From contig DATDWP010000016.1 of assembly GCA_035289625.1 (NCBI GenBank), positions 11,871 to 75,870 on the forward strand: DNA of 64,000 nucleotides, written 5' to 3'. This DNA comes from an archaeon (GTDB lineage Archaea > Iainarchaeota > Iainarchaeia > Iainarchaeales > Iainarchaeaceae). Each line of letters starts with the position of its first letter. The stretch's first letter is position 1. The notes under the pieces were generated by a model that made no database searches, was not told where the DNA came from, and saw only the letters and a list, made by a program, of their open reading frames with translations. Positions 4,683 through 60,668 of this stretch are shown piece by piece. Position numbers and translations under genes: made by a program.

Positions 4683-7304
4683 ATGGATTGGCATCTAATG
4701 CAGCCAAATGAGGCAATGCAGACCCTCAACACTTCGCAAAAAGGCCTCTCTGAACAGGAAGCTTCAAATAGGCTTTTGAAAAATGGGAAAAATGAACTCA
4801 TTTCCGGCAAGAAAATAAATGTATTTGCCCTTCTGGTAGAGCAGTTCTCAAGCCCGCTTGTAATAATATTAATCGCAGCTGCTGCGATCTCTTTTGCTTT
4901 TGAAAAAGGCATTGATGGCATTTTAATTTTGGCAATAGTTGTTGCGAATGCAGTTTTTGGGTTTGCACAAAATTACAATGCGGAAAAGAGCATTGATGCA
5001 CTAAAAAAGATGGGCTCTTCGCGCGCGCTTGTTGTACGGGATGGACTTGCAAAAGAACTTGATTCTAAAGAACTTGTTTGCGGCGATATAATTTTGCTGC
5101 GCGAAGGGGCAAAGATCCCAGCTGATTGTAGGCTAATTGAAGCAAATGAAATGAGTGTTGATGAATCAATCCTAACAGGCGAGAGCGATTCTGTTTCAAA
5201 GCATATAGAGCAGGTTGGAAAAGAGTCCACGCTAGCAGATAGAAAGTGCATGCTCTATATGGACACTTTAGTTGTGAGGGGAAAAGGAAAAGCAGTGGTA
5301 GTAGAAATTGGGATGAATACAGAAGTCGGAAAAATCGCGCAAAAACTTGATACAGTATATGAACAGCCTACAAGGTTCCATAAAGAAATTGAGGTGCTTG
5401 GCAAAAAAATCACTTACATTATCATTGTGCTTGTTGCAATAATCGGCGCTACCATACTATTTGAACACGAAGCTAGCCTAATAGAGGCGCTTATAATTTC
5501 AATAAGTGTAGCGGTTGCTGCAATCCCTGAAGGCCTCCCTGCGGTAGTGACGCTCTCACTTGCAATTGCAACGGCAAGCATGCTCAAGAAAAATACCTTG
5601 GTTAGAAAACTGCCGGTAATTGAAAATTTAGGTTCAGTGCAAGTGATCTGCACAGATAAGACCGGGACCCTTACTGAAAATAGCATGACGGTGCAGCAGA
5701 TTTATTGCAATGGCGGTTTTTATGAAGTGAGCGGCACCGGAAGGAGCATTAAGGGCGAATTTTTTAAAAGTTCAAGAAAAATAAACCCAAAAGAAATTGA
5801 AGAAGTACTACTCTGCGGGCTTATTTGCAATGAAACCATTATCCAAAACGCCCTCCCCCAATTGGAATTCAATGGCGACCCTACTGAAGTTGCCCTATGT
5901 GTTAGTGCACTCAAGGCAGGGGCCTCAAAGGCAGGTTGGGAAGAAGTTAGCGAAATCCCATTTTCTTCAAAAACAAGGAGAATGACAAGCGTTGTGCAAA
6001 ATGAGCAAACAATAATGTCCTATTCAAAAGGTGCGTGCGAAGTGATTTTGGATTCATGTACGCACTTTTTACTCTATGGGGAAAAACTAAAGCTTGATAG
6101 TAAAATGCGCAAGCAAATATTGGAGGCAAATGATTTGATGGGTTCAAAGGCCCTTCGTGTCCTTGCATTTGCAAGTAAGGAATTGAATTCCCCGGATGAG
6201 CAATCAGAATTCGATATGACATTTTTAGGGCTGCAGGGGATGATTGACCCTCCAAGATCAGAAGTTGCAGCAGCACTAGATGTTGCGCGGCAGGCGGGAA
6301 TTAGGGTCGTAATGCTGACAGGGGATAATGCTGCAACTGCAAGGGCAATAGGAGAACAGATTGGTTTTAGGGGGCAAGCTATTGATGGAAAAGACCTTGA
6401 AGCTATGAGCGAGCAGGAATTTGAAAAAGCAACGCGTGTAAATGATATTTTTGCGCGCGTTAGCCCTGAACAAAAATACAGGGTTTTGCGGTTTTTTCGG
6501 GCAAGCGGGCAAAGCGTTGCAATGACAGGGGATGGGGTAAATGATGCAATCGCCCTAAAGGAAGCGGATGTGGGAATCGCAATGGGGATTAGAGGCACTG
6601 ATGTTGCAAAGCAGGCTAGTGATATTGTAGTACTTGATGATAATTTTGCAACAATTATTGAGGCAATTAGACAGGGAAGGGGAGTATTTGATAATATCCG
6701 CAAATTTGTAAATTATTTGCTCTCAAATAATCTAGCAGAAGTGTTCATTGTATTTATTGCCTCTATTGGAGGAAATCTTGCAATTACTGCAGTGCAGCTT
6801 TTGTGGATAAACCTTCTAACGGATGGGATGCCGGCTCTTGCCCTGGGAGCCGACCCTCCAAAAAAAGACATCATGAAAGAGCCACCTAGAAATAAGGATG
6901 AACAGATTGTTACAAAAAAACTCGGAAAAATCATGCTTGCAATAAGTGCAATGCTAACAATTGTAGTGCTTGCAATATTTTACTACTATTTGCCACAAGG
7001 CATTGTGATTGCGCAGACAATGGTATTTACGTGCCTTGTATTTTACGAATTTGTAAGAATAGTAGTTATTCGAAGGCAAGAAAAGCTTGGGTTTTTTTCC
7101 AATAAGTGGCTAGTAGTAGCGCTTTTGGGATCTTTTGTTTTGCAATTATTTGTCCTCTACACTCCGGCATCAAATTGGTTTGGGACAGTTAGCCTTGGAA
7201 TAGAAGACTGGGCGATAATTCTACTTGGCGGAATAGTTGCATACTTTTCAAGTGTTATTATAACAAATCTTTTACAGGAAAAATCCCATAACAGCATAAT
7301 TTAG
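4683..7304 (+). CDS. P-type cation-transporting ATPase (P2, Ca2+-ATPase-like)
   Basis: TGES, ICTDKTGTLTEN phosphorylation site, MLTGDN, MTGDGVNDAIALKEADVGIAMG hinge; about 10 TM. Confidence 0.9.
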   Translation: MDWHLMQPNEAMQTLNTSQKGLSEQEASNRLLKNGKNELISGKKINVFALLVEQFSSPLVIILIAAAAISFAFEKGIDGILILAIVVANAVFGFAQNYNAEKSIDALKKMGSSRALVVRDGLAKELDSKELVCGDIILLREGAKIPADCRLIEANEMSVDESILTGESDSVSKHIEQVGKESTLADRKCMLYMDTLVVRGKGKAVVVEIGMNTEVGKIAQKLDTVYEQPTRFHKEIEVLGKKITYIIIVLVAIIGATILFEHEASLIEALIISISVAVAAIPEGLPAVVTLSLAIATASMLKKNTLVRKLPVIENLGSVQVICTDKTGTLTENSMTVQQIYCNGGFYEVSGTGRSIKGEFFKSSRKINPKEIEEVLLCGLICNETIIQNALPQLEFNGDPTEVALCVSALKAGASKAGWEEVSEIPFSSKTRRMTSVVQNEQTIMSYSKGACEVILDSCTHFLLYGEKLKLDSKMRKQILEANDLMGSKALRVLAFASKELNSPDEQSEFDMTFLGLQGMIDPPRSEVAAALDVARQAGIRVVMLTGDNAATARAIGEQIGFRGQAIDGKDLEAMSEQEFEKATRVNDIFARVSPEQKYRVLRFFRASGQSVAMTGDGVNDAIALKEADVGIAMGIRGTDVAKQASDIVVLDDNFATIIEAIRQGRGVFDNIRKFVNYLLSNNLAEVFIVFIASIGGNLAITAVQLLWINLLTDGMPALALGADPPKKDIMKEPPRNKDEQIVTKKLGKIMLAISAMLTIVVLAIFYYYLPQGIVIAQTMVFTCLVFYEFVRIVVIRRQEKLGFFSNKWLVVALLGSFVLQLFVLYTPASNWFGTVSLGIEDWAIILLGGIVAYFSSVIITNLLQEKSHNSII

Positions 7305-10190: not shown

Positions 10191-10441
10191 AATTAGAAAA
10201 ATGAAGAGTCAGGGAGTTAAATTCCTTTTTATTTTTCTTATGAATAACTAAAACCCTAAATCTTCCCTGTAAAATTTTTTCCCTAAAGCAATATTATTCT
10301 CAAACTCTAGAAGCCTTTTGTACCTATTCATAATAATCGTTGCATTAATACTTATTTTAAGTTTTCCGGCCAACATAACACTAATTTCTTGAAATTGCAG
10401 GAGGGCGGATTCGAACCGCCGAAGGCACTAAGCCAGCAGAT

Positions 10442-10576
10442 CTCTCAGACAGTTTTCAACCTAAAATTACACTTTTCTTTTTGGTCGAGCTTCCTTGCAG
10501 AACTTGTTCTGCGAGGCCTCGCAAAACCATTGGTTTTGCTAGGTTTCTTTTCTTGTTAAAGAAAAGAAAAAGGTCG
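10442..10576 (-). other. tRNA-Leu intron (135 nt), highly structured
   Basis: Lies between G37 and A38. Contains perfect hairpin 10544-10569 and palindromes 10497-10512 and 10521-10539. Confidence 0.8.
10489..10539 (-). repeat. Conserved double-hairpin module, copy 1 (inside the tRNA-Leu intron)
   Basis: Minus-strand GCAAAACC-AA-TGGTTTTGC GAGGCCTC GCAGAAC-AA-GTTCTGC AAGGAAGC. A second copy lies at 45272-45323 (+). Confidence 0.7.
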
Positions 10577-10803
10577 CTTGAGTCTGCCCCGTTTGACCGC
10601 TTCGATACCCCTGCAACAAATACCGTTTTGCTAATTGATTGTCCCGTGGCAAAGTATAAAAATCCTCTTTTGCAAAAAACCCTTCGCTTTTTTGGTTTTT
10701 TTATCAAAAATTTCTTCCCTTCCACGATTGTGGAAATACCAAGCGACGATCCCCGAAAAAGCGCGTGTTTAAATTGAAAGAAGATAGGTGTTAGTAAGGT
10801 GGG

Positions 10804-13700: not shown

Positions 13701-13755
13701 ACAAATAACATAGATGTTCACAATTTATAAACATAATGTTCACTAAAAATAAACA

Positions 13756-13938
13756 CGCGGGGGACGGGATTTGAACCCGTGAACCCTTTCGAGTAACAGC
13801 TAACTACCATCCAAACCAAATAAGAAAAGCAATTCATATTGCCGGGCTTTTTCTTTTGGTACAGCTTTTCTTTTGGGCCAAACCAAAAGAAAAGGTGTGT
13901 TAGCAGGCTGCCGCATTAGACCACTCTGCCACCCCCGC
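13756..13938 (-). tRNA. tRNA-Ser(GCU), class II, with 99-nt intron at 37/38
   Basis: Exons 13938-13901 and 13801-13756. GCGGGGG/CCCCCGC acceptor, GCA/UGC D stem, GCAGC/GCUGU anticodon stem, loop CUGCUA|A, variable arm UACUCGAAAGGGUUC, ACGGG-UUCAAAU-CCCGU T arm. Confidence 0.85.
13802..13900 (-). other. tRNA-Ser(GCU) intron (99 nt) with two polypurine/polypyrimidine hairpins
   Basis: Perfect 12-bp hairpin cttttcttttgg/ccaaaagaaaag at 13865-13894; imperfect hairpin at 13816-13859. Confidence 0.8.
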
Positions 13939-14184
13939 ATTTTAGGTGTTATATAAAAGTGCCAGGGTAAATTTAAAAGGTTTTAGAATAGGTAAACTAA
14001 ATTCTTTTATTGCCTCAATTTCAAACATAAAAAAATCTGTCTTGGATATAGGTCAATGGCTCACAAATTGAGGCAAAAGCAGGTGGCCCAAAACCGCAGC
14101 AAAGGCCTCGGTGACATAATAAAATATTTTTGTCTTATTTTTGTAAAACGAAGTTATGGTGCCCTGGCCATGCAATATTAGAGT

Positions 14185-29405: not shown

Positions 29406-30338
29406 ATGAAAACCAGTACTGTTGCACTTATGCTTGTGGCATTCTTATCCATTTCAGGTTGCGTAAATGTGACTTATGATAAAGGCAATTCAACAGATTT
29501 CCAAGAGTGCGGTAACCTTATTTGCGAGGACGGGGAAACAAAACTGACTTGTGCTACTGATTGTGTCCTTTGCTCTTCACCAGGTGGCTGTTCTGGCAAT
29601 TCGTACAGTTCCCCAAATTCGTACAGTTCCCCAATAATTTCTTCCACAACCGTTAGTCCTTCAAACCCAGGTTTGGGGCAGATCTTCACTCTTTCCCTTA
29701 CCGTGTCTGATGATCGCGGGATCAGATATGTTTTTTGGAACTCCTCAAAGCCTGTTTCTGTCCAAGGCAACCCGACTCTCTTGAAAGGGGATTTTTATGA
29801 TTGCGCTTTCCAGCCAACCTGTTCAGTTTCATTCAGGTTCAGTTCTGAAGAGCAAGGGCCGATACAATTCACTGTTTATGCGGATGATTCTGTCGGCAAC
29901 GAATCCGCAAGATCTGACTTTGAGGTTATCGTACAGTCATTCAAAAGGACCTCCACTGCTGCTGTTTGCGGAAATAATATTTGCGATAGCGGTGAAACAT
30001 CTAATAACTGTGCAGGCGACTGCCCAAGTGCACCTTGTTCTTCAGGCCCGGGATGCCAAGACCCAAATGATGATGTCACGTCCCCATTGTGCGGCAATAG
30101 CGCCTGTGAAACGGGCGAGGCTTTTGAAACCTGCCCGCAGGACTGCCCTTTTGAAAACAATGACGATTCAAATGCCTGCACCACAAATTCAGACTGCGGC
30201 TACCGACAGGCCTGTGAGGGCGGGAGTTGCGTTTCAGTTGAATGCACCAACGATTCGCAATGCTCCGGATGCAGGAGATGTTCGGATAATACGTGCCGCT
30301 CATGCGGATATGGCCCGACTGGTTTATGTTACTGCTGA
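29406..30338 (+). CDS. Cys-rich surface lipoprotein, short paralogue (3 CGN modules + Ig-like core + C-terminal Cys knot)
   Basis: Lipobox MKTSTVALMLVAFLSISGC (ATG 29406; the track start at 29382 is GTG). CGNLICEDGETKLTCATDC-type modules. C-terminus paralogous to the next gene. Confidence 0.75.
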   Translation: MKTSTVALMLVAFLSISGCVNVTYDKGNSTDFQECGNLICEDGETKLTCATDCVLCSSPGGCSGNSYSSPNSYSSPIISSTTVSPSNPGLGQIFTLSLTVSDDRGIRYVFWNSSKPVSVQGNPTLLKGDFYDCAFQPTCSVSFRFSSEEQGPIQFTVYADDSVGNESARSDFEVIVQSFKRTSTAAVCGNNICDSGETSNNCAGDCPSAPCSSGPGCQDPNDDVTSPLCGNSACETGEAFETCPQDCPFENNDDSNACTTNSDCGYRQACEGGSCVSVECTNDSQCSGCRRCSDNTCRSCGYGPTGLCYC

Positions 30339-30439
30339 ACTGCATTTTGTGAATTTTCCAAAAACACAAGTTAACCCAGGACAACACAACCCCCTACACA
30401 AAACAAACCTTTAAGTATAACCTAATTCAATATTTGGAA

Positions 30440-32380
30440 ATGAAATTTTATCCCATTTTGGTTGTTTTTGCAGGTTTTTTTCTTCTAAGCGGATGCGTCA
30501 CAATTGACCTTAGCGAGACAAACCAGACGACCAATGAAACTGTTAAGGGCGCTAACACAGCAGCCTCTTGCGGCAATGGATTTTGCGAGAGCTCGGAAAC
30601 ACTCGCTAGCTGCATTGCTGACTGCACCTATTTTATTGCGCAATGCGGAAACCTGATTTGCGAAAACGGCGAAACACCGGTTACTTGCGAGCAGGACTGC
30701 AGGCCGATTGTCCGCCATGATCTTTGCGGGAATGGGATTTGCGATACCGGAGAGTATGATGAAACGTGCCCTCAGGATTGCCCGCTGCCCGATCCTGTAC
30801 GCGAGGCGTGCGGAAACAGAATTTGCGACACCGGGGAAAATAATTTCTTGTGCCCAACGGATTGTGAAGTGCAGGTAATATGTGGTGATGGGGGGTGCAG
30901 CACAAGTGAAACGCCTGAAACATGCAGCTTGGATTGCGGTTACTCAAACCCTATTTGCGGCAATGCTTTCTGCGAGCCCGGCGAAAGTGCACAAACATGC
31001 CCTGTTGATTGCAGCACCATTGATGCTTTAGGTAATGTGTGCGGCAACGATTCATGCGAACCTGGAGAGACAAGGGAAATGTGCCTGGTTGACTGCAGGT
31101 TTGTTTTCCCGAGGTCAATTTTTGATGTAAACAACAATTTGCCTGACGATCTTAATTCCTTTGACCAGCTGCGGATTTGCGGTAACTATTATTGTGAATC
31201 GAATGAAACAGAACAAAGTTGTCCACGCGATTGCGGCGATCGCCCCGGATTTTGTGGGGACGGTTTTTGTGCAGTGATCGAGGGCTCACAAACCTGCCCT
31301 CAAGACTGCCGCCTTCCTCTGCGACCAGAAACATGCGGGAACGGTATTTGTGATGCAACAGAGGCGTCCACTGCCTGCTGGACGGACTGTTCAGAAGACC
31401 TTACAACCACGTGCGGCGATGGGATTTGTGCAGGGACAGAGAATGCGGCAAGCTGCTCTGAAGATTGCTGGACAAATGGTTCTGGTGACCAATTCCCCTC
31501 GCTCACGGTAACAGTGAGCCCTTCAAACCCTTCACAGAGCACTACTTTCAATCTGACGGTTAGCGCGCAAGACGATGTGGGAATAGACCAGATTTTCTGG
31601 AGCGCCGACAAGTTCATTCCTGATTATAACCACTTGAATTCCTTTGACTGCAACATGCAGACAACATGCACTCATTCATGGGCTGAGCTTATTGCAATCG
31701 AGGAAGGAACTATCCGGATAACTGTTTATGCCACTGATTCTTCAGGACAGCAGTCAGGAAGGCCTGTTATGGAAGTCAATGTCGGGCCTTTTAGGCCTTA
31801 CACTGTTGAAACAGGGGGAGCTGTATGCGGCAATGGCTCGTGCCAGTCCACAGAGAGCCCGAGTTCGTGCCCTTCTGATTGCAACAGCGGAGAAACGGTC
31901 ACAACAATGTGCGGGAACAGCATCTGTGAAACAAGTGAAAGTTCAACAAGCTGTCCGCAGGACTGCTCTGCTGCCCCTTCAGGTCCAATATGCAACAACA
32001 ATATCATTGAGGGTTCAGAAGTCTGTGACGGCACTTCGCTTAGCGGACAAACCTGCCAAACACAAGGCTTTACCTACGGTACATTAAGGTGCAATTTCAT
32101 TTGCTCGGGCTATGATAGGAGTAACTGCTCCAACACCCCTGCTGCAGTGTGCGGCAACGGAACCTGTGAAGCTTCAGAGAGCGAGACAAGCTGTGCTGCT
32201 GACTGCTCTGTTGAAGACGAATGCAGCACGAATTCAGACTGCGGCTATAAGCAAGTTTGCGAATTTGGAGAATGTGTTTCTGTCGAATGCACTAATAGCG
32301 CACAGTGCGGAACATGCCAAAGATGTTCGGATAACATGTGCCGTTCATGCGGTTATGGGCCATATGGCTGCTACTGCTGA
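30440..32380 (+). CDS. Cys-rich surface lipoprotein, long paralogue (14 CGN modules)
   Basis: Lipobox MKFYPILVVFAGFFLLSGC. 14 copies of C-G-[ND]-x2-C-x3-E-x4-C-x2-DC; shared SPSNP...D[DR][VG]GI..[IV]FW core; shared C-terminal 50-aa Cys knot ending CRSCGYGP.G.CYC. Confidence 0.8.
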   Translation: MKFYPILVVFAGFFLLSGCVTIDLSETNQTTNETVKGANTAASCGNGFCESSETLASCIADCTYFIAQCGNLICENGETPVTCEQDCRPIVRHDLCGNGICDTGEYDETCPQDCPLPDPVREACGNRICDTGENNFLCPTDCEVQVICGDGGCSTSETPETCSLDCGYSNPICGNAFCEPGESAQTCPVDCSTIDALGNVCGNDSCEPGETREMCLVDCRFVFPRSIFDVNNNLPDDLNSFDQLRICGNYYCESNETEQSCPRDCGDRPGFCGDGFCAVIEGSQTCPQDCRLPLRPETCGNGICDATEASTACWTDCSEDLTTTCGDGICAGTENAASCSEDCWTNGSGDQFPSLTVTVSPSNPSQSTTFNLTVSAQDDVGIDQIFWSADKFIPDYNHLNSFDCNMQTTCTHSWAELIAIEEGTIRITVYATDSSGQQSGRPVMEVNVGPFRPYTVETGGAVCGNGSCQSTESPSSCPSDCNSGETVTTMCGNSICETSESSTSCPQDCSAAPSGPICNNNIIEGSEVCDGTSLSGQTCQTQGFTYGTLRCNFICSGYDRSNCSNTPAAVCGNGTCEASESETSCAADCSVEDECSTNSDCGYKQVCEFGECVSVECTNSAQCGTCQRCSDNMCRSCGYGPYGCYC

Positions 32381-45176: not shown

Positions 45177-45249
45177 AATTTACAGACTCTTTCTACTAAT
45201 TTACACTTTTTTGAGTCAAATTTATATTCTCTTTCTTTTTGGCCACGAC

Positions 45250-45357
45250 TTTGTTTCTTTTCCGCCACATTGCAAACCTTTCGGTTTGCGATGCCTCGCA
45301 GAACTTTTGTTCTGCAAGGAGGCTTTTCTTTTTCTTTGTAAGAAAAAGAAAAAAGTT
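45250..45357 (+). repeat. Structured repeat block next to tRNA-Ala: double-hairpin module copy 2 (45272-45323) plus polypyrimidine/polypurine hairpin (45323-45355)
   Basis: GCAAACC-TTTC-GGTTTGC GATGCCTC GCAGAAC-TTTT-GTTCTGC AAGGAGGC, then CTTTTCTTTTTCTT-TGTA-AGAAAAAGAAAA. Confidence 0.7.
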
Positions 45358-45363
45358 GTAGTT

Positions 45364-45435
45364 TGGACCCTGCGGGGATTGAACCCGCGGCCTCTTCGTT
45401 GCGAACGAAGCGCTCTACCACTGAGCTAAGGGCCC
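45364..45435 (-). tRNA. tRNA-Ala(CGC), no intron
   Basis: GGGCCCU/AGGGUCC acceptor with the G3:U70 identity pair, GCUC-AGUGGUA-GAGC, CUUCG-UUCGCAA-CGAAG, GCGGG-UUCAAUC-CCCGC. Confidence 0.9.
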
Positions 45436-60510: not shown

Positions 60511-60569
60511 CACACTTTTCTTTTTAGTCAAGTTTTTTCTTTTCGTGTAATGAAAAGAAAAAAGTTGAG
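60511..60569 (+). repeat. Polypyrimidine/polypurine repeat block abutting the 5' end of tRNA-Ser(CGA)
   Basis: acacttttctttttagtcaag (19/21 identical to 10469-10489), then hairpin TTTTTTCTTTTTC-GTGTAAT-GAAAAGAAAAAAG, ending 5 nt before the tRNA. Confidence 0.7.
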
Positions 60570-60653
60570 GCGGAGGTGGCAGAGAGGTCAAATGCGCACC
60601 GCTCGAGACGGTGTTCCCGCAAGGGAGCGCGAGTTCAAATCTCGTCCTCCGCG
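60570..60653 (+). tRNA. tRNA-Ser(CGA), class II, no intron
   Basis: GCGGAGG/CCUCCGC acceptor, GCA/UGC D stem, CACCG-CUCGAGA-CGGUG, variable arm UUCCCGCAAGGGAGC, GCGAG-UUCAAAU-CUCGU, discriminator G. A T5 tract follows. Confidence 0.9.
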
Positions 60654-60668
60654 CCTTATTTTTCAAAT

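Follow-up and report, generated by a model that had tools for sequence, protein, structure and literature searches.

A covariation-supported double-hairpin module and a three-arm pyrimidine/purine cassette beside tRNA genes and inside tRNA introns of Iainarchaeum-type archaea

The stretch of archaeal DNA analysed here (the window, 64,000 nucleotides) contains four copies of a three-arm element, termed the cassette, in the introns of tRNA-Leu and tRNA-Ser(GCU), the 3' flank of tRNA-Ala and the 5' flank of tRNA-Ser(CGA). The window is part of contig k141_3740730 of ENA ERZ4903055, which derives from groundwater. All four lie 0-8 nt from a tRNA exon end. The tRNA-Leu(CAA) gene occupies positions 10395-10615 of the minus strand and is interrupted at position 37/38 by a 135-nt intron (10442-10576); it was missed by default ARAGORN and found, at c[10395,10615], once introns were allowed. 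Its intron flanks, read by hand, form a canonical bulge-helix-bulge with two 3-nt bulges and a 4-bp helix (GCAGA/UCUGC anticodon stem, AGA bulge, CUCA/UGAG helix, AGC bulge, GAC/GUC helix). The second intron-bearing gene, tRNA-Ser(GCU) (13755-13939, minus strand; 99-nt intron), is unannotated and was found by ARAGORN with introns allowed. Default annotation misses two tRNA genes here, owing to these 99-nt and 135-nt introns. The other two genes are tRNA-Ala(CGC) (45364-45435, minus strand) and tRNA-Ser(CGA) (60570-60655, plus strand).

The cassette is a dispersed repeat of Iainarchaeum-type DPANN archaea, 60-130 nt in length. It consists, in order, of a pyrimidine arm (Y1), a linker that optionally holds a double-hairpin module, a second pyrimidine arm (Y2), a loop and a purine arm (R); example arms are CTTTTCTTTTT for Y1 and GAAAAGAAAAAG for R. 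The cassette upstream of tRNA-Ser(CGA) (60515-60564, plus strand) has no module and comprises Y1 CTTTTCTTTTT, an AGTCAAG linker, Y2 TTTTTTCTTTTC, a gtgtaat loop and R GAAAAGAAAAAAG, which stops 5 nt ahead of tRNA position +1. The cassette in the tRNA-Ser(GCU) intron is also module-less (plus strand; Y1 13847-13859, linker, Y2 13865-13877, loop, R 13883-13895). In the tRNA-Leu intron, a T-rich/A-rich hairpin (TTTTTCTTTTCTT taac AAGAAAAGAAA; 10544-10571, minus strand) lies 5 nt past the 5' exon, and the third arm (10472-10482, minus strand) reads AAAAAGAAAAG on the tRNA strand and CTTTTCTTTTT, that is Y1, on the plus strand. This cassette is identical in all same-strain contigs, and no orthologous tRNA-Leu locus was recovered by synteny around GpgS. 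At tRNA-Ala, the distal arm Y1 (CTCTTTCTTTTT; 45229-45240, plus strand) has a second T-rich stretch nearby (45253-45263, plus strand). The Y2-loop-R hairpin of this copy (CTTTTCTTTTTCTT tgta AGAAAAAGAAAAAAG; 45323-45355, plus strand) is 8 nt away from the tRNA-Ala 3' end, and its complement provides a T-run immediately downstream of the tRNA.

The cassettes at tRNA-Ala and tRNA-Leu carry the module, which in full measures 52 nt and spans 45268-45319 (plus strand) and 10493-10543 (minus strand). It is built of two abutting 11-bp hairpins, CCTT-stem-GAGG and then CCTC-stem-AAGG. At the Ala locus, hairpin 1 (45268-45293, plus strand) reads CATT-GCAAACC-tttc-GGTTTGC-GATG, with an 11-bp stem, a T.G at position 4, and CATT/GATG as a compensatory variant of the consensus CCTT/GAGG. 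Hairpin 2 (45294-45319, plus strand) follows with zero linker and reads CCTC-GCAGAAC-tttt-GTTCTGC-AAGG, also with an 11-bp stem and with C.A at position 4. The Leu-intron copy reads CCTA-GCAAAACC-aa-TGGTTTTGC-GAGG and then CCTC-GCAGAAC-aa-GTTCTGC-AAGG. The initial annotation had described a 51-nt double hairpin common to the Leu intron and the Ala flank, lying 41-92 nt past the 3' end of tRNA-Ala; its sequences match exactly at both loci and its coordinates agree. What it had taken for 8-nt spacers linking the hairpins are paired bases: GA(G/T)G, CCTC and AAGG belong to the basal stems and, together with the 5' CCTT/CATT/CCTA that it overlooked, complete the basal 4 bp of both. It had also passed over the larger element, in which the module is an optional insert in a cassette that is found without it as well. 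Pieces common to both window copies are absent from 100 shuffles of the window, and both copies fold far better than shuffled sequences (z = -4 to -7). The module frame is reverse-complement symmetric, a near-perfect dyad of CCTTGC..GCGAGG abutting CCTCGC..GCAAGG, and the covariance model scores the two strands nearly alike. The contrast formerly drawn between a sense copy at Leu and an antisense copy at Ala means little, because the conserved frame of the module reads alike on both strands.

Seventeen distinct copies of the module were found in related DPANN (Iainarchaeum-type) genomes. Among 15 curated copies, 13 of the 18 base pairs show double (compensatory) changes and 94% of the cells are paired. 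None of 500 shuffles matched the observed cells paired, double changes or covariation score, and shifting the 3' partners along the alignment lowered pairing to 25-44%. The counts of doubly changed pairs (13/18) and of shuffles that equal them (0/500) uphold the earlier suggestion that selection on a fold, rather than chance, shaped the module. The pair at stem position 4 of each hairpin is always non-Watson-Crick in the curated copies: it is U.G in the 5' hairpin of all 15 and never standard in the 3' hairpin, and the pairs found are U.G, C.A, A.G and G.A. The pairs beside position 4 covary (CATT/GATG, CATC/AATG, CCAC/ATGG). Stems vary by compensatory change, and linkers and arms stay conserved. 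The ends of the module are always brought together, by a short Watson-Crick closing stem in the armless copies or by the arms of the larger cassette. As a structural domain the 52-nt module is conserved; its two 11-bp hairpins abut without a linker and could stack as a dumbbell. Rfam 15 returned nothing on the module or cassette, either in the window (at gathering thresholds and at E ≤ 0.5) or at nine related loci (at E ≤ 0.1); its matches in these sequences were limited to tRNAs, SRP RNA and a spurious rivX, in keeping with the initial annotation, which had recognised no known RNA family. Whatever its mechanism, this is a new family of structured repeats that covariation supports and Rfam lacks.

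Other identities were considered and rejected. An intronic C/D box sRNA, already doubted from the sequence, is not supported: the tRNA-Leu intron has no C box (TGATGA), its lone CTGA falls in the bulge-helix-bulge region, and the module has no tandem G.A pairs, which also rejects a K-turn or L7Ae site. The irregularities of the module are 1x1 mismatches and not the 3-nt bulges of a bulge-helix-bulge, and an alternative pairing of outer CCTT/AAGG with inner GAGG/CCTC is broken by every natural variant. GCAGAAC/GTTCTGC misfits the RYYYAAC ... GTTRRRY core of integron attC sites, the consensus misfits CRISPR repeats, and the copies are unarrayed. A MITE is rejected on the outer arms, which are mirror-related (parallel complement) and not inverted, and on the want of consistent flanking direct repeats; the sole one among the copies is a 17-codon duplication at locus L002. 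Loci L007 (an Acidobacteriota tandem repeat), L011, L012, L015 and L016 are chance single hairpins that fit the search pattern only. No module matches were found among viral contigs. A DDE transposase is present at L023, far from the module/cassette copy.

The initial annotation had tied the module to tRNAs. This linkage is supported in part: only 7 of 17 module copies are tRNA-adjacent or tRNA-internal, and the three-arm cassette that usually carries the module abuts an exon end at 0-8 nt in 11 of 15 cases. A larger cassette encloses eleven of the 17 modules, six have neither cassette arms nor a nearby tRNA, and four others, inside cassettes, do not adjoin a tRNA. The prospect of many tRNA-unrelated copies, which the same annotation had held would count against it, is thus partly realised, in the six armless modules and the four in cassettes. 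One module copy lies in the presumed 5' UTR of a CCA-adding enzyme gene, and three tRNA-linked cassettes (in the window and relatives) are entirely without a module. Contacts with tRNAs fall on either flank of the gene and, in introns, on the 5' side, always with the Y2/R hairpin proximal. R is followed by a real tRNA, 2-5 nt away, in 3 of 15 cassettes (tRNA-Ser(CGA), Glu at L003, Val at L005); six others are followed by an antisense tRNA and two by an antisense 5' exon, and the remaining four have no tRNA. In a relative with 64% identity in the small protein, a cassette is kept at the orthologous site, between the 76-aa gene and a convergent tRNA-Ala; the orthologous tRNA-Ala flank varies, having the module, the cassette alone, or nothing. 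The orientation of the cassettes relative to neighbouring genes is inconsistent: the L018 cassette lies between divergent genes, and that of L022 is antisense to both neighbours. TATA-like motifs upstream of Y1 occur at inconsistent distances and were not counted as evidence. Relative to the cassette arms, the two hairpins of the module are found in both orders.

Y2 pairs with R in a Watson-Crick hairpin, and Y1, the mirror image of Y2, is complementary to R in parallel. Y1 fits the complement of R in parallel better than its reverse complement in 11 of 13 cassettes; of the other two, one is a tie and one goes the opposite way. Several of these gaps amount to only 1-3 matches, the arms are of low complexity and related copies are non-independent. 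The asymmetric arm patterns shift together among subfamilies: CTTTTCTTTTTCC goes with GAAAAGAAAAAGG, and in other subfamilies CTCTTTCTTTTT goes with GAGAAAGAAAAA, TCTTTCCTTTT with AGAAAGGAAAA and CTTTTCTTTTTTC with GAAAAGAAAAAAG. We know of no mutational process that produces a complement without reversal. Y1, Y2 and R share one strand, as a single-stranded triplex needs, and R is present on it in 15/15 cassettes. G.U pairs (A.C on the opposite strand) fall on the Y1-to-R strand in L006b and L022. Control scans for mirror versus direct matches gave 2 versus 0 hits with one arm type and none of either kind with the second, too few to weigh. In the tRNA-Ser(GCU) intron Y1 suits an ordinary Watson-Crick partner better, and at the Ala locus of the window R is expanded with no corresponding change in Y1.

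Judged from its sequence, the cassette may be an RNA transcript-boundary and end-protection element with a MALAT1-like layout, a tentative reading that we prefer to its rivals but would not yet call probable. The more specific proposal, that the copies form a triple-helix end-cap family with the double hairpin as apical domain, situated beside the cuts of RNase P (5' flanks), RNase Z (3' flanks) and the splicing endonuclease (introns), is more doubtful. RNA from the Y1-Y2-R strand would fold into an intramolecular U•A-U / C+•G-C triple helix, and the double hairpin would be its apical junction domain, at the place of the MALAT1 stem-loop between the U-rich motifs. When a tRNA follows the cassette, cutting by RNase P would release an RNA with its A-rich 3' end held fast in the triplex. 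A cassette situated between a gene and a tRNA convergent with it would provide a structured 3' end for the RNA of that gene, and the complement of the cassette would serve as the oligo-T terminator of the tRNA. Intron cassettes would be placed as a 3'-flank copy of the 5' exon and be removed by the splicing endonuclease. The module could fold whichever strand is transcribed, because its frame is reverse-complement symmetric. Several points tell against this reading, among them the four cassettes without a tRNA, the inconsistent orientation to neighbouring genes, the low-complexity arms and the exceptions at tRNA-Ser(GCU) and tRNA-Ala. Runs of T5-T6 are archaeal termination signals, and those of Y1 and Y2 could halt RNA polymerase before R. 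The Y1-Y2-R strand is antisense to the tRNA in two intron and six 3'-flank copies, so that RNase P acting on a "mirror tRNA", or exonuclease trimming to the triplex, would be required there. The six modules without Y/R arms indicate that the module can exist without a triplex, and its reverse-complement symmetry can be read as easily as a DNA-level or REP-like property.

The main rival of the triplex is a REP/BIME-like repeat combined with oligo-T terminators. The family would be an archaeal counterpart of REP/BIME (REPIN) elements, a dispersed and largely selfish extragenic palindrome in tolerated sites beside oligo-T bidirectional terminators, which we consider possible and rather unlikely. 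It would offer at most generic hairpin protection or termination, and the mirror relation of the T-rich arms would be a low-complexity by-product, a view that we hold to be equally doubtful. The layout agrees: in all 17 module copies the unit CCTTGC...GCGAGG is joined to a second, inverted unit, as in a BIME pair, although no REP-type 5' GTAG tetranucleotide is found in the module or cassette sequences. Genomes contain several copies (the 64 kb of the window include two modules and four cassettes), the module takes both orders relative to the arms, and presence at the orthologous tRNA-Ala flank is variable. Near-identical cassettes occur at non-orthologous loci of different genomes (L006b and L018; L005a at tRNA-Val and L039 at tRNA-Ala), which speaks for this reading. 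Against it, the copies as a whole are not near-identical like products of recent mobilisation, and their compensatory stems and conserved linkers and arms indicate a selected fold. The cassette at L002 is flanked by a duplicated 17-codon 3' end of msrB, and several same-strain assemblies break ~110-235 nt downstream of an 89-aa gene, near or inside tRNA-Leu, both in favour of this reading; on the other side, no terminal inverted repeats and no consistent target-site duplications were seen. Tight abutment to tRNA exons at 0-8 nt, with the hairpin arm proximal, would demand extra targeting, and the concerted parallel changes of Y1 and R are left unexplained. Termination fits in that cassette-free tRNAs likewise show a T-run ~10 nt or less from the 3' end and that the Y1-to-R strand has a GC-rich hairpin followed by a T-run, resembling an intrinsic terminator; efficient termination at such T-runs would nevertheless do harm in the introns of tRNA-Leu and tRNA-Ser(GCU), the latter serving AGY serine codons. 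If this reading is true, the repeat would still be a REP/BIME-like family in an archaeal lineage, DPANN.

An element acting at the DNA level is improbable. Here the Y1/Y2 mirror repeat would form H-DNA and the palindromes of the module and of Y2/R would form cruciforms under transcription-driven supercoiling beside highly expressed tRNA genes, or the pseudo-twofold centre GCGAGGCCTCGC would be the site of a dimeric DNA-binding protein; the element would insulate, block replication or transcription, or be a site of recombination. Y1/Y2 fits the classical H-DNA motif, a homopurine/homopyrimidine mirror repeat, but H-DNA needs Y1 and Y2 only, leaving the constant same-strand R (15/15 cassettes) unexplained, and the 60-80 nt between the mirror halves are unfavourable. 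The near-perfect dyad frame, the like scores of the two strands, the inconsistent orientation relative to flanking genes and the two orders of the module are all compatible with a DNA site. Against this, the variants CATT/GATG, CATC/AATG and CCAC/ATGG, like those at position 4 of L018 and of the Leu copy, break the dyad and keep the hairpins, and such free stem covariation is inconsistent with a sequence-specific duplex site. We give little credence to the module itself being the functional unit, as an RNA three-way junction that a protein binds (perhaps a decoy or a regulatory site for a factor that processes or modifies tRNAs). RNase P would free it from tRNA leaders, RNase Z from trailers and the splicing endonuclease from introns, and the T/A arms would be only terminators or end-hairpins. 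Three tRNA-linked cassettes have no module, and neither the order of the module nor its strand relative to transcription is fixed. Still, every tRNA-linked copy lies where a tRNA-processing cut makes an RNA end 0-8 nt from the hairpin; the strictly conserved non-Watson-Crick pair at position 4 is a typical protein-recognition feature, the copy ahead of the CCA-adding enzyme gene would suit such a role, and armless copies retain a closing stem.

As in bidirectional intrinsic or archaeal oligo-T terminators, T-runs lie on both strands directly by the tRNA, and one cassette strand has the GC-rich hairpin and T-run of an intrinsic terminator. Archaeal termination requires no hairpin. Unlike terminators, the cassette has a third arm with mirror symmetry, which termination does not require, and occurs inside tRNA introns, where terminators are not expected. 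The Leu intron resembles the tRNA-Trp intron of Euryarchaeota, which carries a C/D box sRNA, in that a long bulge-helix-bulge intron at 37/38 contains an independently folded RNA module that the splicing endonuclease would release; it differs in having no C box (RUGAUGA) and no k-turn, and in that the module and cassette also occur outside introns and antisense to tRNAs. With REP/BIME/REPIN elements the family shares short, imperfect extragenic palindromes with a conserved mismatch, inverted pairs, many copies in either orientation, a frequent place at gene ends beside terminators, and stems maintained by compensatory change. Unlike these bacterial elements, it is found in archaea, has no GTAG-type 5' tetranucleotide, combines two units with unrelated stems, neither being an inverted copy of its partner, forms part of a cassette with three pyrimidine/purine arms, and is placed closely against the ends of tRNA exons and within tRNA introns.

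In MALAT1 a triple-helix element (ENE) is accompanied by an A-rich tract and by a tRNA-like structure that RNase P cuts (PMC4836648, PMC8457004). The cassette has the same order on one strand: a U-rich tract, stem-loop(s), a U-rich tract, an encoded A-rich tract and, within a few nt in the tRNA-linked copies, a tRNA-shaped sequence. In both, one of the U-tracts complements the A-tract in Watson-Crick fashion and the other does so in parallel; the C opposite G in the cassette would allow C+•G-C triples, and its ~9-12 potential triples are similar in length. The likeness is drawn at the level of sequence, where Y2/R hairpins with a parallel Y1/R relation are found in 11/13 cassettes, and the triplex and the dependence on RNase P are predicted. 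No homology exists at the sequence level, and the cassette belongs to archaea, from which a 2026 review of RNA triple helices gives no example. In place of the dedicated tRNA mimic of MALAT1, the cassette has as its downstream partner an actual tRNA gene, the antisense of one, or an exon. The apical domain of the cassette is two abutting hairpins, and there are many cassettes per genome, some in tRNA introns and some without a tRNA. If the triplex reading is true, the long tRNA introns of these archaea would be carriers of the same cassette that flanks intact tRNAs; the sharing of a cassette by introns and flanks bears on where archaeal tRNA introns come from and how mobile they are, and on split tRNA genes. 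The 55-nt leader upstream of tRNA-Ser(CGA) is a directly testable system. Encoded triple-helix end protection through tRNA-processing enzymes would, on the triplex reading, not be confined to eukaryotes and their viruses and would extend to small-genome archaea, and the cassette would be an archaeal counterpart of the MALAT1 ENE and mascRNA and the first triple-helix RNA-stability element in Archaea.

Both copies of the double-hairpin module in the window (45268-45319, plus strand; 10493-10543, minus strand) have exactly the sequences given in the initial annotation, which had described a module of about 51 nt common to a tRNA-Leu intron and a tRNA-Ala flank. As described there, the plus-strand copy stops 41 nt from the 3' end of tRNA-Ala(CGC) (45364-45435, minus strand). 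The other copy does lie inside an intron: ARAGORN, with introns allowed, called tRNA-Leu(CAA) at c[10395,10615], giving it an intron of 135 nt, and the exon/intron junctions, read by hand, form a textbook bulge-helix-bulge at position 37/38. The same setting revealed a second unannotated tRNA, the minus-strand tRNA-Ser(GCU) (c[13755,13939]; 99-nt intron); both were overlooked by default ARAGORN and by Rfam. Long, cassette-filled introns are present in these two of the five window tRNAs. The pieces common to both module copies had zero occurrences in shuffled windows, and fold z-scores were -4 to -7 for both copies on either strand. An Archaea_SRP RNA and a GC content of 41% indicate that the window is archaeal; its relatives are Candidatus Iainarchaeum / Diapherotrites (DPANN archaea), and it belongs to a metagenome contig of 217 kb. 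Several independent same-strain assemblies break near or inside tRNA-Leu (contigs L027-L029 and L031, ending within window 10297-10425), approximately 110-235 nt downstream of an 89-aa gene, which is consistent with repeat-induced fragmentation. Elsewhere in the window, a Cys-rich coding repeat, TGCGGCAA(T/C)GG...TG(C/T)GA..., is present at 30085-32250 in five or more diverged copies (families D1, D2, D6 and D10), which points to a large protein, secreted or on the surface, in which CGNG-type domains recur.

Pattern scans with the constant hairpin, one over species-representative genomes and one over metagenomes, found module copies in Iainarchaeum-type genomes only, besides a few unrelated chance hairpins. 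One chance match, a tandem array of ~20-nt units (GCAGAACCATTCTGCGGGCTT-like) in an Acidobacteriota MAG (L007, ~4700-4890), was rejected as unrelated to the archaeal module. A covariance model was built from ten copies and applied to the fetched loci, further relatives and the window; it recovered further copies, of greater divergence, from the first two and no third copy from the window. The aligned unit reads 5'-CCTT, stem-loop-stem, GAGG/CCTC, stem-loop-stem, AAGG-3', so the two "8-nt spacers" of the initial annotation are really paired bases, the lowest four pairs in each of two 11-bp hairpins that abut. Its proposal of selection on a fold is borne out by 15 distinct copies aligned by hand over the basal 9 bp of each hairpin, with a placeholder for the loops: 94% of cells are paired, 13 of the 18 base pairs show two-sided changes, and none of 500 shuffles matched the observed cells paired, double changes or covariation score; pairing fell to 25-44% once the 3' partners were slid. 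The basal tetrad variants CATT/GATG, CATC/AATG, CCAC/ATGG and TCTT/GAGA are all compensatory under the two-hairpin model, and every one disrupts an alternative outer/inner pairing, which was rejected. Position 4 is U.G in the 5'-hairpin stem of 15/15 copies, and forms no standard pair in any 3' hairpin (C.A in 13, U.C and C.U in one each).

The module consists of a hairpin unit and, after it, a second unit in inverted orientation; its centre (GCGAGGCCTCGC over GCAAGG/CCTTGC) is pseudo-twofold symmetric, and its two hairpins can stack into a dumbbell with no linker between them. The conserved frame is reverse-complement symmetric, and the covariance model accordingly gives both strands nearly the same score. 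Whether the "constant" GCAGAAC hairpin is the 5' or the 3' one with respect to the flanking arms differs between copies; the search pattern fixed it in ten copies, and its variability is visible only in model-found ones (GCAAGC, GTCCC, GCACTC, GTACCC). The module ends are held together in all settings, either by cassette arms or, in arm-less modules (L023, L008, L014b), by an ordinary Watson-Crick closing stem. In another lineage, two loci of one metagenome (Ga0209542; L009 3405-3507, L014 1109-1211) carry the module without T/A arms as part of a dispersed repeat, 100 nt or longer, that has further hairpins (91% identity over 103 nt); in L014, a single minus-strand ORF lies between two modules.

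Around 11 of 17 modules we found a three-arm cassette: a pyrimidine arm Y1 (e.g. CTTTTCTTTTT), a ~10-nt linker, the module, a second pyrimidine arm Y2, a loop of 3-9 nt and a purine arm R (e.g. GAAAAGAAAAAG). Cassettes without the module occur directly upstream of tRNA-Ser(CGA) (60515-60564), in the 99-nt tRNA-Ser(GCU) intron, which on the tRNA strand folds into two T/A-arm hairpins, beside tRNA-Arg (L006) and beside tRNA-Ala (L037). The linkage of copies to tRNAs held in part: 11 of 15 cassettes lie 0-8 nt from a tRNA exon end, always with the Y2/R hairpin proximal, whereas six modules have neither arms nor tRNAs. Three cassettes are in 5' flanks (Ser(CGA), Glu, Val), six in 3' flanks (Ala three times, Val, Trp, Arg) and two in introns, 5-6 nt after the 5' exon. 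Within the window, each of the four cassettes adjoins a tRNA, and only one of the five tRNAs is without a cassette; I. andersonii has a tRNA-Val with a cassette on each side. The cassettes with no adjoining tRNA follow an msrB-like gene (L002), or lie between co-directional genes (L006b), two nad genes (L022) or the divergent genes for T2SSE and CCA-adding enzyme (L018 668-770, module present). In L018, 9 nt separate the A-rich arm from the ATG of the CCA-adding enzyme (tRNA nucleotidyltransferase) gene, a gene of tRNA maturation, so the cassette is probably within its 5' UTR. At an orthologous locus ordered as a conserved 76-aa membrane protein gene, cassette and convergent tRNA-Ala, the window and L039 have cassette and module, L037 (small protein 64% identical to that of the window) the cassette only, and L036 neither. 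This indicates that the element is long-lived at tRNA flanks and that module and cassette are gained, lost or exchanged. The arms and one hairpin of L039 are nearly identical to those of the I. andersonii tRNA-Val copy. In L039 (8499-8560), Y1 and linker are tandemly duplicated (gcaCTCTTTCTTTTTagtgcaggtt, twice), and pairing of GCACT with AGTGC could leave Y1 in a closed 10-nt loop; two Y1-like arms are also present in L005a, L006a, L037 and the window Ala locus. On the minus strand of L002, the cassette lies between two diverged copies of the 3'-terminal 17 codons of the msrB-like gene (CINSLALDFKLQKRGVK* and CVNSLALDFRPENASPK*), ~140 nt to each side of the module (2082-2135); it looks as if the cassette had come in along with a substitute 3' end, much as an integrative element does.

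Y2 and R are inverted repeats that form a hairpin. Y1 does not repeat either arm again, inverted or direct; instead, it complements R in the same reading direction, and we know of no mutational mechanism that produces complementation without reversal. When the best match within the upstream 150 nt was compared for 13 cassettes, the parallel match to complement(R) exceeded that to reverse-complement(R) in 11, with one tie and one reversal; the arms are of low complexity, margins are often 1-3 matches, and the copies are related, with perhaps five independent arm patterns. The asymmetric patterns vary between subfamilies, yet the Y1/R parallel match is kept: CTTTTCTTTTTCC/GAAAAGAAAAAGG (L006b, L018), CTCTTTCTTTTT/GAGAAAGAAAAA (L002, L005a, L006a, later L037 and L039), TCTTTCCTTTT/AGAAAGGAAAA (L022), CTTTTCTTTTTTC/GAAAAGAAAAAAG (L005b) and CTTTTTCTTTT/GAAAAAGAAAA (L003). 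Ordinary pairing fits better in the tRNA-Ser(GCU) intron, and R is lengthened at the window tRNA-Ala locus with no matching change in Y1. Two unrelated IMG/VR viral contigs (L034 9569-9625 and L035 433-480, both minus strand; one with 65% GC) have the same mirror arrangement just after terminator-like hairpins (CTTTTCTTTTT, GC hairpin or short linker, TTTTTCTTTTC, loop, GAAAAGAAAA), and a control pattern in which Y1 was directly repeated gave no match; judging by these arms, the motif may be present outside archaea.

In a Y•R-Y triple helix, the pyrimidine third strand is parallel to the purine strand and places its T on A and its C on G. Y1, Y2 and R are all on one strand, as an intramolecular single-stranded triplex requires; duplex H-DNA needs no R. 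Our preferred reading, held tentatively and at somewhat less than even chance, is that RNA of the Y1-to-R strand forms a U•A-U / C+•G-C triple helix and that the cassette is a transcript boundary. Such RNA would be transcribed through the T-runs and form ~9-12 triples, with the double hairpin as apical junction between the two U-rich strands. In 3'-flank copies (window, L037, L039, L002), this strand would be the 3' UTR of the convergent neighbor, while the complement supplies the T-run ordinarily found after tRNAs here; the cassette could then be a compact two-way transcript boundary. What is shown of this mechanism is the fold of the module, the geometry of the arms and the abutment to tRNAs. 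Against the triplex, T5-T6 runs are archaeal termination signals, the triplex-capable strand is antisense to the tRNA in intron and 3'-flank copies, L018, L022 and L005a are inconsistently oriented with respect to genes, and the module can exist without arms. Evidence on the functional strand is mixed, since two G.U-versus-A.C asymmetries (L006b, L022) favor folding of the Y1-to-R strand, whereas position-4 variants (Leu copy, L018) give purine-purine on the other.

A REP/BIME-like dispersed palindromic repeat at plain oligo-T terminators would account for the copy number and the design with an inverted unit, for cassettes that are near-identical although their loci are not orthologous, for the presence/absence variation, and for the duplication of the msrB 3' end in L002. 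This explanation is possible but doubtful, as it leaves parallel Y1/R covariation, compensatory stem evolution and exact abutment to tRNA ends unaccounted for. A DNA-level structure or protein site agrees with the dyad symmetry; it is contradicted by natural variants in which the dyad is broken and the hairpins kept, and appears unlikely. That the module is a protein-binding RNA freed by tRNA processing is possible but improbable, its protein partner being hypothetical.

Nothing in Rfam matches the module, in agreement with the initial annotation; a 2026 review of RNA triple helices contains no archaeal example, and literature searches on Iainarchaeum or DPANN tRNA introns and repeats turned up nothing relevant. 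In MALAT1 and MEN-beta, a tRNA-like structure is closely preceded by an A-rich tract, which RNase P frees and which is locked into a triplex (PMC4836648, PMC8457004). The cassette is proposed to have the same architecture. The analogy is direct where the cassette is a 5' flank, since R stops 2-5 nt short of tRNA position +1 in these three copies; a nuclease may act there likewise, with a possible stabilizing effect. The ENE class is biochemically defined, whereas the cassette is likened to it by its sequence; REP elements are marked by the GTAG tetranucleotide, which has no counterpart in module or cassette, and by the RAYT transposase. For these reasons the cassette is kept out of both families, and it may represent a new structured repeat akin to REP/BIME elements, to an ENE-like triple helix, or to both.
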